Positions 9,862 to 18,202 of a stretch of DNA of 18,202 nt are shown in pieces. The DNA comes from a virus (taxonomy: Duplodnaviria; Heunggongvirae; Uroviricota; Caudoviricetes): IMG/VR virus record IMGVR_UViG_2617270976_000013, positions 1 through 18,202 of that record; one strand, given 5' to 3'. A program made the position numbers and the translations under genes. The notes under the pieces were generated by a model. It was not told the DNA's origin, did no database searches, and saw only the letters and a list, made by a program, of their open reading frames with translations. Numbering within the stretch: position 1 is the stretch's first letter; each line of letters begins with the position of its first letter.

Positions 9862-10055
9862 TTTTCAGCACATTTGATTTCCAATAATCAACCAGCCATA
9901 ATCATGCCATTGGAGCCTGAACAACTCCGGTGACTTCTGCGCTAAACGGGGACGTTTATGCGCACATACAATCCAACCTATCTTCTCCATTCACAGATGC
10001 AGAAATGCACCTGCGTTTTTTTGCATCCAACGTTTGACCTCTGCGGAGGTGAAGC

Positions 10056-10511
10056 GTGAACCTCCCACAAGACGGTATCAAATTGCATCGCGGTAACTTC
10101 ACCGCTATCGGTCAGCAGATCCAGTCTTATCTGGAGGACGGCAAATGCTTTCGCATGGTGCTTAAACCGTGGCGCGAAAGACGCAGTCTTTCCCAGAATG
10201 CACTCAGCCACATGTGGTACAGCGAAATCAGCGAGTACCTCATCAGCAGGGGGAAAACGTTCGCTACTGCAGTATGGGTAAAAGATGCACTCAAACACAC
10301 ATACCTCGGTTATGAAACCAAGGACTTGGTTGATGTCGTAACCGGCGAAATCACTACTATCCAGTCGTTACGCCATACCTCCGATCTTGATACCGGAGAG
10401 ATGTATGTCTTCCTGTGTAAGGTTGAAGCCTGGGCGATGAATATTGGCTGCCACCTGACTATTCCGCAGAGCTGCGAGTTCCAGCTGCTGCGCGACAAGC
10501 AGGAGGCGTAA
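10056..10511 (+). CDS. ninB: NinB/Orf-family recombination protein (YbcN-like)
   Basis: 151-aa product with [17 protein letters not shown] motif (lambda NinB RSLDQNRKLWACLGDVS); GTG start with GGAGG 6 nt upstream. Confidence 0.85.
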
Positions 10512-10681
10512 TGGCTACACCGCTTATTCGGGTCATGAACGGACACATCTACAGAGTACCAAATCGTCGTAAGCGTAAACCGGAGCTGAAGCCTTCCGAA
10601 ATACCAACACTGCTCGGATATACCGCCAGCCTGGTTGATAAAAAATGGTTGCGACTGGCAGCAAGGAGGAATCATGGCTGA
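10511..10681 (+). CDS. ninE: NinE-like small protein
   Basis: 56-aa product [56 protein letters not shown]; SD AGGAGG; TAATG overlap with ninB; below the ORF track cutoff. Confidence 0.65.
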   Translation: MATPLIRVMNGHIYRVPNRRKRKPELKPSEIPTLLGYTASLVDKKWLRLAARRNHG

Positions 10682-10964
10682 TTTGAGAAAAGCAGCGCGT
10701 AGTCGGGAATGCCAGGTAAGAATCCCTGGCGTATGTAATGGCAACCCTGAAACGTCTGTACTGGCACATATCCGGCTGACTGGATTGTGCGGCACCGGTA
10801 CCAAACCGCCAGACCTGATTGCCACCATTGCATGTTCTGCCTGCCACGACGAAATCGACCGCCGCACACATTTTGTCGATGCTGCATATGCAAAAGAATG
10901 CGCGCTGGAAGGTATGGCGAGAACACAGGTTATCTGGCTGAAAGAGGGGGTTATTAAGGCGTGA
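10674..10964 (+). CDS. YbcO-like cysteine-rich protein (DUF1364-type)
   Basis: 96-aa product [34 protein letters not shown]...[11 protein letters not shown] with conserved Cys/His; SD AGGAGGA; same order (ninB-like, ninE, ybcO, rusA) as in the DLP12 prophage. Confidence 0.75.
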
Positions 10965-11323
10965 ATACCTACAGCATCACATTACCCTGGCCTCCGAGCA
11001 ATAATCGCTATTACCGCCATAATCGCGGGCGCACGCACGTCAGCGCAGAGGGGCAGGCATACCGCGATAACGTCGCCCGAATCATTAAAAACGCAATGCT
11101 GGATATCGGCCTGGCTATGCCTGTGAAAATCCGCATTGAGTGCCACATGCCGGATCGCCGTCGCCGTGACCTGGATAATCTGCAAAAAGCCGCTTTTGAC
11201 GCACTCACTAAAGCAGGTTTCTGGCTGGATGATGCTCAGGTCGTTGATTACCGTGTTGTGAAGATGCCTGTTACCAAAGGTGGGAGGCTGGAACTGACCA
11301 TCACCGAAATGGGGAATGAATGA
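10961..11323 (+). CDS. rusA: Holliday junction resolvase RusA
   Basis: 120-aa product [74 protein letters not shown]... closely matches E. coli RusA; GTGA overlap with the upstream gene. Confidence 0.9.
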
Positions 11324-11460
11324 TGTTTGAGTTTTATATGGCAGAACTTCTTCGCCACCGCTGGGGGCATCTGCGCTTATATCGTTTCCCCGGTTCTGTT
11401 TTGACCGATTACCGAATACTGAAGAATTACGCCAAAACCCTGACAGGAGCAGGAGTATGA
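11320..11460 (+). CDS. ylcG: YlcG-like small protein
   Basis: 46-aa product [46 protein letters not shown]; ATGA overlap with the rusA stop. Confidence 0.65.
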
Positions 11461-11545
11461 AGCCAGAGATAACAATCAACTAATACTGTTTTATTGATTT
11501 TTGCTTGTAATTGGCGTTCTGGTCTGATTTTTGTGGAGTAAGTTG

Positions 11546-11929
11546 ATGCGTGATATTCAGATGGTTCTTGAGCGTTGGGGAGCGTGGGCGGCTAATAATC
11601 ATGAAGATGTGACCTGGTCGTCCATTGCCGCCGGTTTTAAGGGATTAATTCCTTCAAAAGTAAAATCTCGCCCGCAATGTTGTGACGATGACGCGATAAT
11701 CATTTGCGGGTGCATGGCCCGTCTGAAAAAGAACAACAGCGATTTGCACGATTTATTAGTAGATTATTATGTAGTCGGTATGACATTCATGTCACTGGCA
11801 GGTAAGCATTGCTGCTCTGATGGTTATATCGGGAAAAGGTTACAGAAGGCTGAGGGTATAATTGAAGGGATGTTAATGGCATTAGATATCCGGTTAGAGA
11901 TGGATATCGTTGTTAATAACTCTAATTAA
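11546..11929 (+). CDS. late-gene antitermination protein Q (QuuD-like)
   Basis: 127-aa product [60 protein letters not shown]... with the Cys cluster of Q-family antiterminators; SD GGAG upstream. Confidence 0.9.
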
Positions 11930-11941
11930 TATGCCAATTGT

Positions 11942-11970
11942 TTACTAAAAATTATTAAAAATGGGGCGTT
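11942..11970 (-). terminator. putative intrinsic terminator for the porin gene (minus strand)
   Basis: Stem ggggcg / cgcccc with loop ttgaga (11953-11970); on the minus strand followed by ATTTTTAATAAT. Confidence 0.45.
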
Positions 11971-12117
11971 GAGACGCCCCCAAAAATAAAGGGTAATATA
12001 TAACAGAAGGTTTATATAGTTAGAAGCAAGTTTGTGCTCATAAAGGAAGTGGTTTGAGGGAGCCATTTATATGTGGGGGAGGAAAAGCCCCCCGCAACAT
12101 ATCTTTTAGTAATCAAA

Positions 12118-13200
12118 TTAGAACTGGTAAACCATACCTACAGCAACGATATCATCGGTAGCAACGCCAGATGCTTTCGTGAAATCGCTCTTATCAATCA
12201 GGTTGATTTTGTAATCAACAAAAGTGGACATATTTTTGTTGAAGTAATAGGTTGCACCTACATCAATATATTCAACCAGGTCCTGATCACCCCACGCACC
12301 CAAGTCTTTTCCTTTAGATTGCAGGTAAGCAACGGACGGACGCAGACCGAAGTCGAACTGATATTGTGCAACTACTTCGAAGTTTTGTGCTTTGTTGGCA
12401 ATATGGTTATTACCAAAAACAGTCATGTTCTGGGTTTCAGAATAGGTGGTAGCCAGATAGATGTTGTTCGCATCATATTTCAGACCAGCTGCCCATACTT
12501 CAGCATTTTGACCAGATGCATTCAGGCTGTTGTTACCGTAGATAACCTGATTATTAGTGCGGTCAGATTTAGCATAGGTTGCACCTACACCGAATCCTTC
12601 ATACTCATAAGTAGTGGAGAAACCGAAACCATCACCATTAGCTTCAGTTACGTCAGTGCGGTCATTTTTACCCTGATACTGAGCAGCAAAGTTCAGACCA
12701 TCAACCAGACCAAAGAAGTCATTGTTACGATAAGTTGCAACACCTGTGGTGCGACCAGTCATGAATACATCTGTTTGGGTCCAGGTATCGCCACCGAATT
12801 CTGGCAGAACGTCGGTCCATGCACCAATATCGTATGCTACACCGTAGTTACGGCCATAATCGATGGAGCCGTAGTCACCGAATTTCAGGCCAGCGAAGGC
12901 AAGACGGGTTTTATCTTTGGAGGAACCTTGAGATTCAGCGCGGTTGCCTTTGAATTCATATTCCCACTGACCGAAACCAGTCAGTTGATCGTTGATTTGG
13001 GTTTCACCTTTGAAGCCAAGACGGGCATAAGTAGTATCACCATCATCTGCATCATTAGAGGAGAAGTAGTGCTTAGCATTAACTTTCCCGTACAGATCCA
13101 GCTTGTTACTGTCTTTATTATAAATTTCAGCTGCCTGAGCAGACATCGCCATCAGTACTGATGCAGTTACAGCAGAAATTGCCACTGTTAATTTTTTCAT
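12118..13200 (-). CDS. OmpC/NmpC-family outer-membrane porin (prophage moron)
   Basis: 360-aa product with signal peptide [23 protein letters not shown], Gly/Tyr/Asn-rich beta-barrel composition and C-terminal F (..VGMVYQF); lies between Q and the lysis genes in opposite orientation, as nmpC does in DLP12. Confidence 0.9.
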
Positions 13201-13626
13201 CGTGAGCCCTTTTTTTGAACTATTATTAAAAAATGATGTCACTGCGCGATAAATATTCATCTAATCAATGTGATTATTTCAAGATGTAAGTTTTGGTTTC
13301 TCATTTGATTTGTGAAGTAGATCTCTATTTTTATCTGAACTTTTTCTATCGAATCCTATTCATGGCTCTTGGCTGAATAAAAATAAATCTATTAGCCAAT
13401 TTATATTAATGGCTGTTATTTATAAGTGCTCTATAATTTGAAGGTTCAATTTAAATCGGCTAAAAATAACGCTGGAAATTATTTGTTGGTTATTTGTTGA
13501 GATTTGCTTATGTATTTGTAGTGGTGTTTTCAATACTCGGTAGCATTCTCGCAAATATCATTTAGTGGTTTACGTACGTAAAAAATTGGTTATGCTGTTA
13601 AGAGTGGTTACTTCGTCACACAGCTT

Positions 13627-13659
13627 AAACCCGCCGTCGAGCGGGTTTTTCCATTTTTT
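13627..13659 (+). terminator. intrinsic terminator upstream of the lysis cassette
   Basis: Stem aaacccgc / gcgggttt with loop cgtcga, followed by tttttccatttttt on the plus strand, about 110 nt before the holin start. Confidence 0.5.
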
Positions 13660-13771
13660 GAGTCTCGATATTAGCTGATAACCCAATACCTGAGTTATTC
13701 ACTGACTCCGAGTCTGTTACGTTTCGTAGTATTCCCTCAATTTACACCCGCTTTGTCTGCGAGGTGGGGTT

Positions 13772-13987
13772 ATGAAATCCATGGATAAGTTAACAACGGG
13801 TGTCGCCTATGGCACCTCAGCAGGTAGTGCCGGGTACTGGTTTTTACAGCTGCTAGATAAAGTCACGCCCTCACAGTGGGCGGCAATTGGAGTGCTGGGT
13901 AGCCTGGTATTTGGCCTGCTGACGTACCTGACAAACCTTTATTTCAAGATTAAAGAAGATAAGCGCAAGGCTGCGAGAGGTGAATAA
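13772..13987 (+). CDS. S: class II holin (phage 21 S-type pinholin) with dual-start motif
   Basis: 71-aa product [71 protein letters not shown]; two TM helices; Met1 and Met4 (MKSM); SD GAGGTGGGG. Confidence 0.9.
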
Positions 13988-14484
13988 TGCCTCCATCATT
14001 ACGAAAAGCCGTTGCTGCTGCTATTGGTGGCGGAGCAATTGCTATAGCATCAGTGTTAATTACTGGCCCAAGTGGTAACGATGGTCTGGAAGGTGTCAGC
14101 TACATACCATACAAAGATATTGTTGGTGTATGGACTGTATGTCACGGGCATACAGGAAAAGACATCATGCTCGGTAAAACGTATACCAAAGCAGAATGCA
14201 AAGCCCTCCTGAATAAAGACCTTGCCACGGTCGCCAGACAAATTAACCCGTACATAAAAGTTGATATACCGGAAACAACGCGCGGCGCTCTTTACTCGTT
14301 CGTTTACAACGTGGGCGCTGGCAATTTCAGAACATCGACGCTTCTTCGCAAAATAAACCAGGGCGATATCAAAGGCGCATGTGATCAGCTACGTCGCTGG
14401 ACATATGCTGGCGGTAAGCAATGGAAAGGTCTCATGACTCGTCGTGAGATTGAGCGTGAAATCTGTTTGTGGGGTCAGCAATGA
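13987..14484 (+). CDS. R: SAR endolysin (T4-lysozyme-like muramidase with signal-anchor-release domain)
   Basis: 165-aa product; N-terminal Gly/Ala-rich weakly hydrophobic segment [18 protein letters not shown] followed by a Glu, Asp, Thr catalytic spacing ([15 protein letters not shown]); TAATG overlap with the holin. Confidence 0.9.
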
Positions 14485-14941
14485 ACAGAGTAACCGCGAT
14501 TATCTCCGCTCTGGTTATCTGCATCATCGTCTGCCTGTCATGGGCTGTTAATCATTACCGTGATAACGCCATTACCTACAAAGCCCAGCGCGACAAAAAT
14601 GCCAGAGAACTGAAGCTGGCGAACGCGGCAATTACTGACATGCAGATGCGCCAGCGTGATGTTGCTGCACTGGATGAAAAATACACGAAGGAGTTAGCTA
14701 ATGCGAAAGCTGAAAATGATGCTCTGCGTGATGATGTTGCCGCTGGTCGTCGTCGGTTGCACATCAAAGCAGTCTGTCAGTCAGTGCGTGAAGCCACCAC
14801 CGCCTCCGGCGTGGATAATGCAGCCTCACCCGACTGGCAGACACCGCTGAACGGGATTATTTCACCCTCAGAGAGAGGCTGATCACTATGCAAAAACAAC
14901 TGGAAGGAACCCAGAAGTATATTAATGAGCAGTGCAGATAG
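14481..14941 (+). pseudogene. Rz: Rz (i-spanin) disrupted by a -1 frameshift
   Basis: N-terminal about 113 aa ([45 protein letters not shown]...) is lambda Rz-like, but the frame runs into ...[19 protein letters not shown] (the Rz1 C-terminus) and stops at 14882; the lambda Rz C-terminus [31 protein letters not shown] is in another frame ending at 14941. Confidence 0.7.
14701..14850 (+). pseudogene. Rz1: Rz1 (o-spanin lipoprotein), C-terminally altered by the same frameshift
   Basis: Embedded [52 protein letters not shown] (49 aa) with lipobox VVVGC; lambda Rz1 continues ...[21 protein letters not shown] (60 aa), sequence that here sits in the Rz frame. Confidence 0.6.
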
Positions 14942-14972
14942 AGCTGCCCATATCGATGGGCAACTCATGCAA

Positions 14973-15266
14973 TTATTGTGAGCAATACACACGCGCTTCC
15001 AGCGGAGTATAAATGCCTAAAGTAATAAAACCGAGCAATCCATTTACGAATGTTTGCTGGGTTTCTGTTTTAACAACATTTTCTGCGCCGCCACAAATTT
15101 TGGCTGCATCAACAGTTTTCTCCTGTCCAATTCCCGAAACGAAGAAATGATGGGTGATGGTTTCCTTTGGTGTTACTGCTGTCGGTTTGTTTCCAACAGT
15201 AAACGTCTGTTGAGCACATCCTGTAATAAGCATTGCCAGAGCGGCAGAAAACAACATTTTTTTCAT
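14973..15266 (-). CDS. bor: Bor lipoprotein (serum-resistance moron)
   Basis: 97-aa product MKKMLFSAALAMLITGCAQQTFTVGNKPTAVTPKETITHHFFVSGIGQEKTVDAAKICGGAENVVKTETQQTFVNGLLGFITLGIYTPLEARVYCSQ with lipobox LITGC; matches lambda Bor. Confidence 0.9.
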   Translation of the reverse strand: MKKMLFSAALAMLITGCAQQTFTVGNKPTAVTPKETITHHFFVSGIGQEKTVDAAKICGGAENVVKTETQQTFVNGLLGFITLGIYTPLEARVYCSQ

Positions 15267-15446
15267 CTTATTATCCTGCATTGTTAAAAACGGCAGAATC
15301 CTATGTGACAACAATTAAACGATAGTTAAATGGATTGATGAAAATTAAAACTATATAGGTGTACGGTCAGACTATTGGAGGTAGTCAGGATTTGAATGTC
15401 AGTCTGTTGTCGGCATTCTGGCAATGCAATTTGGATAAAGCGGGGA

Positions 15447-15569
15447 TTAAAAAGATAGAGGCGAGCCGGTCAGGTAGAAATGAATCAGGCTCAAAGTGAA
15501 GCGGAAAAGGTCTGTGGCACAAGCTGATGCAGCCATAATTACAGCCTGATGATTTGTGGAATGAAACAT
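15447..15569 (-). CDS. candidate small hydrophobic ORF (40 aa), unverified
   Basis: ATG at 15569 preceded by GGAGG with a 6-nt spacer; product MFHSTNHQAVIMAASACATDLFRFTLSLIHFYLTGSPLSF; no homolog recognised. Confidence 0.25.
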   Translation of the reverse strand: MFHSTNHQAVIMAASACATDLFRFTLSLIHFYLTGSPLSF

Positions 15570-15649
15570 GTTGAACCTCCTTAATTGATGTTATTCGAGT
15601 GATGAAGGCATTCTGTCCTTCTATAGTGTCCAGTAAATCAAACAGGAAA

Positions 15650-15705
15650 CTTGTCCAACGTGTTGGACAAGCCTCTCCATTAGTGAGTTGTATTGATCAC
15701 AACTC
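15650..15705. repeat. pair of inverted repeats of unknown function
   Basis: cttgtccaac-gt-gttggacaag (15650-15671, perfect 10-bp arms) and gagttgt-attgatc-acaactc (15685-15705, 7-bp arms); lie between bor and the tail-module remnant with no flanking T-run. Confidence 0.6.
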
Positions 15706-15808
15706 TACAAAGAATTCATTACTGGGTAGATGAAAATAGTTTCACGATGAATGGAGGAGGCTATGTCGGTGGCTTCTTCATTGGAGTATCCGCGAATGCC
15801 TGCAATGG

Positions 15809-15964
15809 ATGATTGATGACGGCGTGGTGTCCCGTATTGATCTGGATATCCGCCGCACCGGGATTAATGAACTGGGTAACAGTATCACTCTCTGGCGTCG
15901 TGACGGACCGGTAATGATTTCTTTTGATGATCTGTGGAGTGCGATAACGCATGGCGGACAGTGA
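15809..15964 (+). pseudogene. truncated ORF overlapping the J start, possibly the 3' remnant of an upstream baseplate gene
   Basis: Open frame from the stop at 15737 to 15964 encoding ...MIDDGVVSRIDLDIRRTGINELGNSITLWRRDGPVMISFDDLWSAITHGGQ; overlaps J by 14 nt as upstream baseplate genes often do; no SD or N-terminal domain. Confidence 0.3.
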
Positions 15965-16871
15965 ATTTCAGCGCCCGACGCTGGCAGAAAATATCAGTAT
16001 GCTCCGTAACGATTTATTCGCCAGGCTGGACGTCAGCGACACGCTCCGGCGCATGGATGAAGACGTGCGGGCAAAGGTGTATGCGGCGGCGCTGCATACG
16101 GTTTACGGTTACATCGATTATCTGGCAATGAACATGCTGCCTGACCTGTGCGATGAGTCCTGGCTGGCGCGACATGCTGCGATGAAACGGTGTCCGCGCA
16201 AGGGGGCCACGGCTGCCAGCGGGTATATGCGCTGGGAAGGTGTCAGCGATGGCCTGAAGGTGACTGCCGGGAGTGTTATTCAGCGCGATGACCTGGTTCA
16301 GTACACGGCAACTGCCGATGCAACCAGCTCCGGTGGTGTCCTGCGCGTGCCGATCGCCTGCTCAAGTGCAGGCGCGGTCGGTAACGCTGACGACGGTACG
16401 TCATTAATCCTGGTCACGCCGGTGAATGGTCTGCCGTCTTCCGGCGTGGCAGACACTCTGACAGGTGGATTTGATACTGAAGAGCTGGAAACGTGGCGCG
16501 CCCGCGTCATTGAGCGGTATTACTGGACGCCTCAGGGCGGGGCTGACGGGGACTATGTTGTCTGGGCTAAAGAAGTGCCAGGCATTACCCGTGCATGGAC
16601 ATACCGCCACTGGATGGGAACGGGGACTGTCGGTGTGATGATTGCCAGCAGTGACCTGATTAATCCCATTCCGGAAGAATCAACGGAAACGGCGGCAAGA
16701 CAACACATTGAGCCACTGGCCCCGGTGGCAGGCTCTGATTTGTATGTATTCAGGCCGGTGGCGCATAAAGTGGATTTTCATATCCGCGTGACGCCGGACA
16801 CACTGGAAATACGGGCTGCCATCACCGCCGAGTTGCGTTCGTTCCTGCTGCGTGATGGTTATCCGGAGTAA
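15951..16871 (+). CDS. baseplate assembly protein J-like (P2 gpJ family)
   Basis: 306-aa product MADSEFQRPTLAENISMLRNDLFARLDVSDTLRRMDEDVRAKVYAAALHTVYGYIDYLAMNMLPDL... recognised as the P2 J / e14 JayE baseplate family. Confidence 0.8.
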   Translation: MADSEFQRPTLAENISMLRNDLFARLDVSDTLRRMDEDVRAKVYAAALHTVYGYIDYLAMNMLPDLCDESWLARHAAMKRCPRKGATAASGYMRWEGVSDGLKVTAGSVIQRDDLVQYTATADATSSGGVLRVPIACSSAGAVGNADDGTSLILVTPVNGLPSSGVADTLTGGFDTEELETWRARVIERYYWTPQGGADGDYVVWAKEVPGITRAWTYRHWMGTGTVGVMIASSDLINPIPEESTETAARQHIEPLAPVAGSDLYVFRPVAHKVDFHIRVTPDTLEIRAAITAELRSFLLRDGYPE

Positions 16872-17095
16872 TCCATGCATCGTATAGATACGAAAGACAG
16901 CTATTAATTAATCAGGCCAACGAATACATGAACAGTAAACAATGGCCCGGTAAAACCGCTATTGGTCGTCTGAAAGGCGAGGAACTGGCGCAATATAATT
17001 CGTGGCTGGATTATCTGGACGCACTGGAGCTGGTTGATACCTCCAGTGTGCCAGATATTGAATGGCCTACGCCTCCGGCAGTTCAGGCCAGATGA
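16872..17095 (+). pseudogene. tail fibre assembly protein remnant (C-terminal part only)
   Basis: Frame open from the J stop encodes ...ERQLLINQANEYMNSKQWPGKTAIGRLKGEELAQYNSWLDYLDALELVDTSSVPDIEWPTPPAVQAR, the conserved C-terminal region of Tfa chaperones, with no N-terminal domain; converges on and overlaps the complete tfa on the other strand. Confidence 0.5.
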
Positions 17096-17669
17096 CATCA
17101 GGCGCGGTGCTGGTATCAGTTGCCGTCACCGCGTCAATGTAATCCAGCACAGCGTTAAGGCTGGTTGTTTCTGCCTGCGTCAGTTTACGTCCGGCCTGCA
17201 ATTTCAGCTGAATCAGACTGATTGAAGCCATTGCAGTATCAATCAGTGACTGGCGCTGTGCTTCTGCTGCATCTACTGCGGCGCTATGCTGTGCTTCGGT
17301 ATCCGTCACCCATTTCTCACCATCCCATTTATCGTATGGCGTTAACGGGGCGATAGTGGTTGTATTATCAGGGTAATCACCCGGAGCTGTGATTTCTTTT
17401 GACTCTCCCGTTTTGGTGCTATAGACGATTTCACCGCGATGGTCTGGCACATATTCCCATGAGTTAAAATTTGCAGAACGACAGATAGCATAACCCGCCT
17501 TATGTGTGCCAGGGGCATCTAAACAGGAATATGCAGGAATACCGACACCAATGGCAAGATATTCAGTTGATGCTGAAATATATTCCTGCGTCTCACTATC
17601 ATAGTTATAAACGGTAATATCCCCCGACTTTGTAGCAATAAGCTCACTATTTAATATTGCTTTATCCAT
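17067..17669 (-). CDS. tfa: tail fibre assembly protein (Tfa chaperone)
   Basis: 200-aa product ending ...QSLIDTAMASISLIQLKLQAGRKLTQAETTSLNAVLDYIDAVTATDTSTAPDVIWPELPEA, the characteristic Tfa C-terminus; start overlaps the stop of the upstream tail-fibre ORF (TAATG). Confidence 0.85.
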   Translation of the reverse strand: MDKAILNSELIATKSGDITVYNYDSETQEYISASTEYLAIGVGIPAYSCLDAPGTHKAGYAICRSANFNSWEYVPDHRGEIVYSTKTGESKEITAPGDYPDNTTTIAPLTPYDKWDGEKWVTDTEAQHSAAVDAAEAQRQSLIDTAMASISLIQLKLQAGRKLTQAETTSLNAVLDYIDAVTATDTSTAPDVIWPELPEA

Positions 17670-18202
17670 TATGCTGCTCTCACGATATAGTTAAATGCAA
17701 TGTTTCGAGGGCGATTCTCTGATGCTGTTGGTACAACCCTGGATGCATCAAAACTGAATCCTGTGTAAGGGGTATTTTTTGTTTCATATGTGCCTAGGTT
17801 ATTATAGATATTTCGCGTAGCTTGAGATGCTAAGGCAAAAGCACCAGTACCAGTCTGTAACCTGAAAGTTGCTGTATCAATGGTGCCTTTAACTTCATTT
17901 ATAAATCCTGTTATATTCCGAATGGTATCTCCCTGTGACGAAAGCAAGCTACGGTTAGTATCAATCCCTCTTCCATCATCCCAGCCACGAATAAACTCAC
18001 CGCGTAAATCAGGCAATTTATTTGTCGGGTAAACCTTTGCCAGTTCCGGGTATTCTTCAGCAGAAAAAGCCGCCCCGTTGCATTTCAGCCAGCCTGTTGG
18101 CGGAGTGGCGGAAGGCCACGGAACAGGCACGCCAACGGGTAATGCCGAACCTTCTCCCAAACCAACGTTTATGAAAATGCAGAAATAACGAGCAAATGGC
18201 AT
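17669..18202 (-). CDS. tail fibre protein, C-terminal (variable) segment with tail-collar domain
   Basis: 177-aa product containing LPDLRGEFIRGWDDGRGIDTNRSL (tail-collar signature); only 177 aa, so it cannot be a whole fibre; the ATG sits at the last bases of the window. Confidence 0.75.
   Translation of the reverse strand: MPFARYFCIFINVGLGEGSALPVGVPVPWPSATPPTGWLKCNGAAFSAEEYPELAKVYPTNKLPDLRGEFIRGWDDGRGIDTNRSLLSSQGDTIRNITGFINEVKGTIDTATFRLQTGTGAFALASQATRNIYNNLGTYETKNTPYTGFSFDASRVVPTASENRPRNIAFNYIVRAA
18152..18177. other. candidate DNA-invertase crossover site (hix/gix/pix-like)
   Basis: TTCTCCCAAACCAACGTTTATGAAAA: 26 bp, imperfect dyad around an AAACC-AA-CGTTT core; resembles hixL (TTCTTGAAAACCAAGGTTTTTGATAA) recalled from memory; lies within the 5' end of the tail-fibre segment. 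Confidence 0.5.

Follow-up and report, generated by a model that had tools for sequence, protein, structure and literature searches.

An intact NmpC/Lc-type porin cassette lies between the Q antiterminator gene and a predicted late promoter in a lambdoid prophage

Introduction

The closest relatives of the locus described here, the nmpC/lc porin genes, ipeX and the Q-controlled lysis cassette of DLP12, are already known and have been studied since the 1980s. In the DLP12 (qsr') prophage of E. coli K-12, the genes rusA-ylcG-quuD are followed by nmpC on the opposite strand, split by an IS5, and then by essD-rrrD-rzpD-bor. Phage PA-2 carries the functional phage version of the cassette, with the porin gene lc (J02580). 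In published work on the K-12 and PA-2 alleles, the ipeX activity is described as a lowering of OmpC/OmpF by RNA from the porin 3' UTR. For K-12 nmpC, the promoter has been placed between -199 and -1 relative to the ATG, with a start, a 'G', mapped by 5' RACE; this promoter is activated by CRP and repressed by OmpR, IHF and MprA (PMC11677980).

Among antiterminators, Q21/Q933W has been set apart from Q82 and Q-lambda as a family of its own (bioRxiv 10.1101/651190). In the Stx phages 933W/VT2-Sakai, the source of the StxS small RNA, the late promoter pR' overlaps the 3' end of Q. The pR' start of the Sakai Stx phages has been mapped by dRNA-seq, and the first hairpin is evidently read through in part, as the mapped RNA end is 258 nt downstream (PMC7547250). 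Phage 21, for which Q21 structures are available (6P18, 6JNX), has a compact layout, with promoter, Q-binding element, pause element and terminator within ~85 bp (terminator annotated at +3 to +50). Finally, bor and lom are morons for outer-membrane proteins expressed from the prophage and transcribed against the late operon.

Results

The window, i.e. the whole stretch of 18,202 nucleotides analysed here (IMG/VR record IMGVR_UViG_2617270976_000013), carries on its minus strand a porin gene of the NmpC/Lc type, at 12118-13200. It encodes 360 aa, including a 23-aa Sec signal peptide (13132-13200). The listed minus-strand ORF extends over 12118-13260; the real start is the ATG at 13200, since the PA-2 lc CDS maps to 12118-13200 and its annotated signal peptide coincides with the one found here. 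The Porin_1 domain (PF00267) is full length (profile 1-337/337, E 3.1e-153), the NCBIfam 'porin OmpC' subfamily model scores 518 bits against a cut-off of 484, the C-terminus (...VGMVYQF) ends on an aromatic residue as usual for porins, and no frameshift was found in the ORF in the window sequence. An earlier sequence-only reading of this DNA had described a complete OmpC/NmpC-type porin with a signal peptide, encoded opposite to Q (11546-11929, plus strand) and to S/R/Rz (13772-14882, plus strand); both integrity and orientation are confirmed. Solved porins matched include OmpK37 (E 2e-137) and OmpC (E 1e-135), and this similarity places the protein among the general bacterial porins (OmpC/OmpF/PhoE/NmpC), with a predicted trimeric 16-strand beta-barrel pore. 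PA-2 Lc is 90% identical in amino acids, the differences clustering at residues 181-235 and 263-268. Judged by its sequence, the protein is a member of the OmpC family, namely the classical lysogenic-conversion porin NmpC/Lc known from lambda-like prophages of E. coli.

In this lambdoid prophage, Q and the S21-type lysis genes flank the porin, which is on the opposite strand. The late lysis cassette (13772-14882, plus strand), recognised by Pfam and by the equivalent annotation in 434B and phage 21, comprises an S21-type dual-start pinholin (13772/13781-13987), a SAR endolysin (13987-14484) and frameshifted Rz/Rz1 spanins (14481-14882). The Bor gene is just downstream (~14973-15314, minus strand). 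Gene order is that of DLP12, to which the window is 94-100% identical in the spacer, the promoter region and the pR' block; in contrast to K-12 nmpC the porin gene is intact, and the prophage is at thrW next to proA, whereas DLP12 is integrated elsewhere. Using 11400-14000 as a query, the Q-porin-S module was covered over at least 80% in 2387 of 5426 complete E. coli genomes, and likewise in 36 phage records, including PA-2 lc and a 434/DLP12 hybrid (91-94% identity for PA-2 and the hybrid). A 362-aa plus-strand ORF at 12073-13161, 'ORF1' of the PA-2 record, was rejected as a gene: it is the codon-aligned mirror frame of the porin, kept open by the scarcity of TTA, CTA and TCA codons in the porin gene (1, 0 and 1 occurrences).

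Between the porin and Q, the minus strand carries a 3' UTR of the porin that corresponds to the ipeX small-RNA region in DLP12/PA-2 (11947-12117, taking the porin stop codon and the far end of the T tract of the terminator as its limits). Mean column identity over this UTR is 95% in an alignment of six copies, with K-12 DLP12, PA-2 and three phages. An intrinsic terminator of the porin/ipeX transcript is predicted at 11947-11980 (minus strand), with its stem at 11963-11980 and its T tract at 11947-11962. As returned by the terminator scan it reads GGGGCGTCTCAACGCCCC followed by ATTTTTAATA, the stem having 7 pairs, 6 of them G-C, and the stem bases are conserved in all six aligned copies. The hairpin is not a plus-strand terminator, since that strand continues with CAAAAATAAA. 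The feature had been placed at 11953-11970; the hairpin is real, although 10 nt away from there, and terminator-like on the minus strand only. A second G/C-rich stem-loop, at 12075-12093 just past the porin stop codon and inside the ipeX-like UTR (minus strand; sequence and predicted fold), had been located correctly, and diverged copies preserve its stem by changes of the A-T to G-T type. It is not a terminator: no T run is present on either strand and the terminator scan made no call. Terminator-like sites in the scan numbered 3, against 2.4 +/- 1.6 in shuffled sequences, which is not above chance, so the significance of the hairpins rests on conservation and homology. An Rfam search gave a tRNA as the sole match, with no family for ipeX or for the late leader. 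By its conservation with K-12 and PA-2, the porin 3' UTR is of the ipeX type and ends at a predicted intrinsic terminator; a regulatory activity of such RNA is known for its homologues from the literature.

Upstream of the porin, GC content is 29.6% over 13201-13568 and 41-46% over 13569-13771. The AT-rich region, first thought to extend over some 500 bp (13260-13770), is therefore real but shorter, at 13201-13568. That it probably holds the porin promoter is supported by its match to the promoter-bearing region of the near-identical K-12 DLP12 allele. Homology to PA-2 and K-12 delimits a promoter/regulatory region at 13201-13400 (minus strand), almost invariant in the six aligned copies, where mean column identity on this flank of the gene is 95% as it is on the other; the annotated PA-2 CRP site maps to 13308-13328 with an identical sequence. 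PA-2 also shares the downstream UTR and the S21-type lysis genes, and differs by a 17-bp S-leader segment that the window lacks, at ~13725. With a simple sigma-70 scan the porin showed no promoter close to consensus, and a looser scan gave only a candidate extended -10 (TGaAATAAT, 13273-13281), with the G at 13266 as a candidate start. Further upstream, an AT-rich spacer at 13433-13540, which separates the porin's regulatory DNA from the late promoter, is the least conserved part: it contains most of the variable columns of the six-copy alignment, and PA-2 identity is 90% over 13463-13562 versus 98% on either side.

The DLP12 lysis operon is reportedly regulated by RpoE (this is said to be the subject of work by Rueggeberg in 2015). 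A published reporter fragment for that operon is described as spanning -121 to +650; its forward primer maps to 13128-13147, which puts the '+1' near 13249. The fragment runs from inside the nmpC 5' end into essD, and is thus downstream of the porin body. A possible sigma-E-type promoter may be read at 13217-13249 on the plus strand (GAACTA, 16 nt, TCACT; start near 13249).

The Q gene (11546-11929, plus strand, 127 aa) is of the QuuD type and belongs to the Q21/Q933W family (PF06530, E 3.1e-53). Its product is 98% identical to K-12 QuuD and 77-78% identical to the VT2-Sakai/933W-type Q of Stx phages, relative to which it is ~18 aa shorter at the C-terminus; the solved Q21 is a distant match (E 2.8e-7). 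Phage 82 Q, in contrast, is a 229-aa protein of a different Pfam family (PF06323), with no similarity to the window Q detectable by BLASTP (E 8.7). Phage 82 is 95% identical to the window in the nin region (9873-11461), yet with a Q of another family it is not a valid guide to the window qut. Locating the late promoter and qut by alignment to phage 82, as had been advised, therefore cannot work; the comparison has to be made with phage 21 and with Stx phages. For the same reason the idea of an '82-like' Q (82 pR' pause at +25, GCC at +15-17) was dropped, phage 82 (X92588) Q being unrelated. Phage 21 shares with the window the Pfam family of Q, the S21 lysis genes and the compact arrangement of its late control elements. 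Unlike in phage 21, however, the Q21 binding repeats (ATTGAGCA/AATGAGCA) are absent, so the DNA site of the window Q must differ.

Homology to the Stx-phage promoter/qut/terminator, annotated directly after Q in those phages, was found in a single segment of the window, 13568-13650; pR'/qut homologues stand right after Q in the annotations of VT2-Sakai, 24B and Ss-VASD. This defines a putative pR' and Q-utilisation region at 13569-13626 (plus strand), with a -35 TTTACG at 13569-13574, a -10 TATGCT at 13591-13596, a start near 13603, corresponding to the mapped Stx-phage start, and the conserved early-transcribed block AAGAGTGGTTACTTCGTCACACAG. That start lies 258 nt from tR' in Stx phages, in agreement with the predicted +1 and second terminator of VT2-Sakai. 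Over 13596-13650 the window is 96% identical to phage 1720a-02. The stretch 13568-13693 is invariant in six diverged DLP12-type copies, the early-transcribed 12-mer is unique in the window, and GTGGTTAC(T/A)T is invariant across lineages. The PA-2 record has a 'second CRP site' that falls at 13603-13623, on the early-transcribed late block, and late control explains its conservation better than CRP binding. A full-text literature search for the qut 10-mer returned unrelated papers only. The candidate sigma-70 pause element is weak: the window has TACTTC/TTACTT where Stx phages have TACATT, each without one key -10 base (A2, T6). A direct repeat TGGTTA (13586, 13606) was considered as a two-subsite Q-binding element and set aside as probably due to chance, as neither Stx phages nor 1720a-02 have the upstream copy. 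A remnant of the longer 933W-type Q C-terminus was also sought at 13500-13568, where the similarity is only faint (SGVFNTR and a stop, versus TSVFYQRK).

The hairpin previously noted at 13627-13659 stands as described: a stem at 13627-13648 and a T run to 13659 make up a plus-strand terminator-like structure at ~+25 to +57 by scan and fold, homologous to the first terminator annotated after pR' in Stx phages. It would be the promoter-proximal (tR'-like) terminator of the late leader. By homology, the window thus has, ahead of its late genes, a promoter, a Q-utilisation region transcribed early and a terminator close to the promoter, an architecture shared with phage 21. Stx phages have counterparts of the -35, of the early-transcribed block and of the first hairpin, and a second terminator 258 nt downstream, ahead of tRNAs and stx, whereas the window has one hairpin and S after 112 nt. 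Given that the first hairpin is partly read through in Stx phages, it may not be fully efficient as sole terminator in the window. Start site, termination and Q dependence are transferred to the window by homology, at 77-96% identity over 55-83 bp.

From the Q stop codon (11929) to the cognate late-control block (13569) the distance is 1.64 kb, and from the conserved end of Q (...RLEMD) to the pR'/qut/terminator block about 1.66 kb (11906-13568), with the porin in between. This departs from the usual layout, in which pR' and qut directly adjoin Q. Q acts in trans on its promoter, and adjacency of Q and pR' is not mechanistically required. The same block is found after different intervening DNA in four arrangements: the promoter overlaps the Q 3' end in the 933W type, the block starts 38 bp after Q in 1720a-02, ~600 bp after it in PhiR40_1, where the interval holds a reverse 148-aa ORF, and 1.66 kb after it here, where the interval holds the porin.

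Discussion

The sequence-only reading had Q-antiterminated late transcription crossing 1.1 kb of porin antisense. This is not supported, given the position of the sole pR'/qut/terminator homology, at 13569-13659, between porin and holin: Q-modified late transcription very probably starts downstream of the porin and does not cross it. The same high confidence applies to the account of the whole cassette, in which the porin would be an independent minus-strand unit, made of a CRP-activated promoter, a 66-nt-class leader, the porin, an ipeX-like 3' UTR and an intrinsic terminator, placed tail-to-tail with Q and back-to-back with the late promoter. A lysogen would make the porin from the cassette's own promoter, and the RNA of the porin 3' UTR would lower OmpC/OmpF, as in the published K-12/PA-2 work, changing the outer membrane and receptor availability. 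Upon induction, Q would be made from the early rightward transcript, and would act in trans on polymerase started at pR' near 13603, allowing it to pass the 13627-13659 hairpin and to reach S, R and Rz. Promoter use, termination, Q action and porin expression in the strain are what we infer here from the gene identities, homologies, positions and conservation observed. In position the porin differs from Bor: Bor is inside the late transcription unit, the porin upstream of pR'.

Antisense RNA across the porin could nevertheless have another source, which the earlier reading did not claim: early pR transcription reading through past Q, with polymerase that is not Q-modified. During lytic growth it would dampen porin/ipeX expression and feed a low, Q-independent transcription of the lysis genes. 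In lambda, antiterminated pR transcription continues beyond Q. Here Q and the porin are convergent, and no plus-strand terminator follows Q, the 11963-11980 hairpin having no downstream plus-strand T run. Against this, no N-type antiterminator was identified in the window and, in K-12 without induction, placing a terminator between nmpC and quuD caused no measurable change in a read-out that responds to plus-strand transcription (PMC11677980). We regard such read-through as plausible but less likely than not.

It is rather unlikely, in our view, that the cassette is a decaying remnant whose porin is silent. The prophage is defective, with no head genes in the window and an Rz/Rz1 frameshift, and its late control may have lost its importance for this host. 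The nmpC gene of E. coli B was reportedly called 'quiescent' in the title of a 1998 paper, and the upstream DNA, at 30% GC, would suit H-NS silencing. However, all parts of the porin unit, from the promoter region and CRP site through the ORF and signal peptide to the UTR and terminator, are intact and almost the same as in expressed alleles. In K-12, the activity of the nmpC promoter suffices to drive the IS5 transposase (PMC11677980), and nmpC homologues of CFT073 are strongly expressed at 37 C, mRNA and protein both being much higher than at 23 C (PMC12890032). Prophage porins of the NmpC type are, as these homologues show, expressed in lysogens.

Least probable is a pR' and qut right after Q (11930-12117), from which Q-modified polymerase would run through the hairpins and over 1.1 kb antisense to the porin on its way to S: pR' does directly follow Q in most lambdoid phages (as annotated in phage 21 and VT2-Sakai) and the AT-rich Q-porin spacer has -10-like hexamers such as TAATAT at 11994-11999, but motif and homology searches of that spacer found no qut-like motif and no homology to any pR'/qut of the Q21/Q933W family, promoter scans found no plus-strand promoter-like site in it, the ipeX UTR and terminator on the minus strand account for its conservation, the cognate block is present, unique and invariant at 13569-13659, and in PhiR40_1 a second, unrelated reverse-strand insert occupies the same place with the block again downstream.

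The stretch between the Q end (...RLEMD) and pR' has as its known occupants the porin and ipeX in this window, the unrelated reverse 148-aa ORF in PhiR40_1 and the C-terminal Q extension in 933W. More speculatively, it may be a recurrent cargo slot of Q21/Q933W-family phages, shielded from Q-modified late transcription, next to an always-on pR' that would make a 52-57-nt leader RNA (13603 to ~13659) in every lysogen, perhaps trans-acting like StxS; taken together we consider this doubtful. For annotation, the value of the result is that in a widespread module the late promoter would be found 1.6 kb from Q, beyond the porin, and that phage 82 is the wrong reference for this type of Q. When the expression of late genes, porin and ipeX in prophages is modelled, antisense reading of the porin by late transcription should not be taken for granted.

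The late promoter probably lies beyond the porin gene

The sequence-only reading held that late transcription antiterminated by Q would read through the porin gene in antisense. Searches with the spacer between porin and holin spoke against it: 13568-13650 matched, at 77-78%, DNA that hundreds of Stx phages carry right where Q ends, and in VT2-Sakai, 24B and Ss-VASD the matching DNA is annotated as late promoter (pR'), qut site and terminator. Alignment to these phages places, all on the plus strand, a -35 box TTTACG at 13569-13574, a -10 box TATGCT at 13591-13596, a conserved block AAGAGTGGTTAC from 13600, and the late-leader hairpin at 13627-13648. With its T run to 13659, this hairpin is the terminator-like site expected at 13627-13659. 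The 12-mer AAGAGTGGTTAC occurs a single time in the window, and promoter scans revealed no promoter-like site on the plus strand between Q and the porin gene.

To position the transcription start, the Sakai Stx phages are informative: the pR' start was mapped there by dRNA-seq, with a transcript 3' end 258 nt downstream (PMC7547250). The same spacing of 258 nt separates, in VT2-Sakai, the predicted +1 (7 nt past the -10) from the T run of the second terminator annotated there, meaning that the annotated promoter is the one mapped by dRNA-seq. This +1 aligns to position 13603. It is therefore at 13603 that the alignment sets the late start, and we consider it very likely that Q-modified transcription begins near this position, without crossing the porin gene.

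The block 13568-13693 is invariant in six diverged DLP12-type copies, the most variable stretch in the same copies being 13433-13540. The late region is compact, as in phage 21, where the curated -35, Q-binding element, -10, start, pause element and terminator (+3 to +50) all fall within ~85 bp; here the hairpin spans about +25 to +46. Further down, past the late terminator but ahead of the holin start, a 17-bp segment of the S leader (CTGCTTTT-TTGCGATA, at ~13725) is absent from the window and K-12 DLP12, whereas PA-2, Lambda_4C10, PhiR63_2 and ev099 have it.

Antisense RNA to the porin could arise in another way, by early transcription that runs on beyond Q, a gene with no plus-strand terminator after it. 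Against this, a terminator placed there in uninduced K-12 had no effect (PMC11677980).

Four layouts of the interval between Q and pR'

With pR' placed beyond the porin, the interval separating it from Q can be compared between phages. Q is longer in 933W-type phages, and the promoter there overlaps its 3' end; in 1720a-02 the block, 96% identical to 13596-13650, begins 38 bp after Q. In PhiR40_1 the slot of the porin, with a QuuD-like Q on one side and the conserved pR' block on the other, is taken by a reverse-strand 148-aa ORF without Pfam match (990-1436 in locus L008), whereas in the window, DLP12 and PA-2 the separation consists of ipeX, the porin gene and the AT-rich region. The Q proteins of the four layouts share ...RLEMD and diverge beyond, which sets the junction at ~11905. 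It seems improbable to us that the interval recurrently serves as a slot for cargo protected from late transcription, with a 52-57-nt pR' leader RNA playing a regulatory role like that of StxS, the small RNA from the pR' of Stx phages.

The Q protein (127 aa, PF06530) is 98% identical to K-12 QuuD, 77-78% identical to Q of VT2-Sakai and 933W-type Stx phages, and distantly related to the solved Q21 (E 2.8e-7). The Q21/Q933W family was named by Yin et al. as separate from the Q-lambda and Q82 families. Comparison with phage 82 Q (229 aa, PF06323) gave no similarity. Of the two phages proposed for locating the late promoter by alignment, phage 21 offers a comparable layout, while phage 82 has an unrelated Q and resembles the window only in the nin region (9873-11461; NinB-like, NinE, YbcO, RusA and YlcG; 95% identity). 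This likeness stops where Q begins, a clean mosaic boundary past which another Q family is found.

The porin gene, its promoter and its 3' end

The porin ORF was listed at 12118-13260 on the minus strand, but the true start is the ATG at 13200, to which the CDS of PA-2 lc (GenBank J02580) and a 23-residue signal peptide map. Pfam Porin_1 covers the 360-aa protein end to end (E 3e-153), the NCBIfam OmpC-subfamily threshold is passed, solved OmpK37 and OmpC resemble it (E about 1e-135), and it ends in ...VYQF. PA-2 Lc is 90% identical, the differences being concentrated at residues 181-235 and 263-268. The gene is intact, and the proposal of a complete OmpC/NmpC-type porin with signal peptide, opposite in strand to Q and the lysis genes, is upheld; the gene lies between Q and the S21-type holin. 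A 362-aa plus-strand ORF antisense to it (12073-13161), the 5' part of which is 'ORF1' of the PA-2 record, was rejected as a codon-aligned mirror frame, open because TTA, CTA and TCA codons are nearly absent from the porin gene.

Upstream, the AT-rich DNA suspected of holding the porin promoter covers 13201-13568 (29.6% GC) and does not extend to 13770. In K-12 nmpC, deletion of -199 to -1 abolishes promoter activity, 5' RACE gave a 'G' as start, CRP activates, and OmpR, IHF and MprA repress (PMC11677980), which agrees with a promoter in this region. Mapping over 13200-13770 is a sensible proposal, most of which has already been carried out for K-12. At 13308-13328 the window carries, with identical sequence, the annotated CRP site of PA-2, and an extended -10 TGaAATAAT (13273-13281) with start G 13266 would fit as candidate promoter. 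A second 'CRP site' of the 1986 PA-2 record maps to 13603-13623, exactly on the early-transcribed, qut-like pR' block, and late control explains its conservation better than CRP binding.

On the other side of the gene, the hairpin placed at 11953-11970 exists, but 10 nt higher, at 11963-11980. It is terminator-like on the minus strand only, with a 7-pair stem followed by ATTTTTAATAATTTTT; the plus-strand sequence after it is CAAAAATAAA. The second, at 12075-12093, was correctly located, but lacks a T run on either strand and is thus a stem-loop rather than a flanking terminator. Both lie in a 171-nt stretch that opens at the porin stop codon and closes with the T tract of the terminator. Aligned to K-12, PA-2 and three other phages, it has a mean column identity of 95%, and it folds better than shuffled sequence (z = -3.1). 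As judged by sequence, this stretch corresponds to ipeX, with exact ends that we infer here.

In a paper that cites control of the operon by a Q-like factor, the reporter for the promoter of the DLP12 lysis operon is given as -121 to +650. With the forward primer falling at 13128-13147 and the reverse primer inside essD, the +1 of that paper comes to lie near 13249. Just upstream is a plus-strand sigma-E-like motif, GAACTA-16 nt-TCACT (13217-13249), overlapping the opposite-strand 5' leader of the porin. It would fit the RpoE control reportedly exerted on the DLP12 lysis operon.

The surrounding prophage

The window is a segment of E. coli chromosome with proA, tRNA-Thr(CGT) (1369-1444) and then a lambdoid prophage encoding, in order, integrase, Gam, RecT, a YqaJ-type exonuclease, an S24-type repressor, a Cro/YdaS-type protein, YdaT, an O-type replication protein, the nin region, RusA, Q, the porin on the opposite strand, the S21-type holin, a SAR lysozyme, Rz/Rz1 and Bor (minus strand, about 14973-15314, 3' of Rz). 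The segment after Rz (14900-18202) holds a Baseplate_J protein (15951-16871, 55-61% GC) and, beyond it, a protein for tail-fibre assembly and a fragment of a tail-collar fibre; the window has neither terminase nor head genes. The prophage appears truncated, or fused to tail genes from another phage type. In Rz/Rz1 (14481-14882), a 1-base deletion at 14826-14827 relative to K-12 DLP12 and phage 21 (GCAGCCT-CACCCGAC versus GCAGCCTCCCCCCGAC) shifts both overlapping frames: Rz now finishes with the Rz1 C-terminus and Rz1 stops early. Both spanins look inactivated, unless the C run contains a sequencing error.

Distribution and proposed working of the module

The region 11400-14000 is covered over at least 80% of its length in 2387 of 5426 complete E. 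coli genomes (best identity 99.5%) and likewise in 36 phage records, including PA-2 (lc) and a phage 434 isolate carrying the K-12 DLP12 segment with nmpC::IS5. DLP12 shares the gene order: quuD, nmpC::IS5, essD, rrrD, rzpD, borD. This order and coverage mark the module as the classical nmpC/lc cassette, and all components belong to already known systems. The sole substantive correction, pR' beyond the porin, can be read directly off a comparison with annotated phages, and the DLP12 literature probably implies it already.

In the lysogen, a transcript from ~13266 to the terminator at ~11947 would serve as porin mRNA and give rise to ipeX RNA from its 3' end. Expression of nmpC homologues has been shown for K-12 and CFT073. 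Porin and ipeX together would reshape the set of porins in the outer membrane. Consequences of phage porins for receptors and exclusion are described in older literature. Meanwhile pR' would fire constitutively, as reported for Stx phages (PMC7547250), and terminate at its hairpin. Once the prophage is induced, Q expressed from the early transcript would act in trans at pR' and open S, R and Rz.
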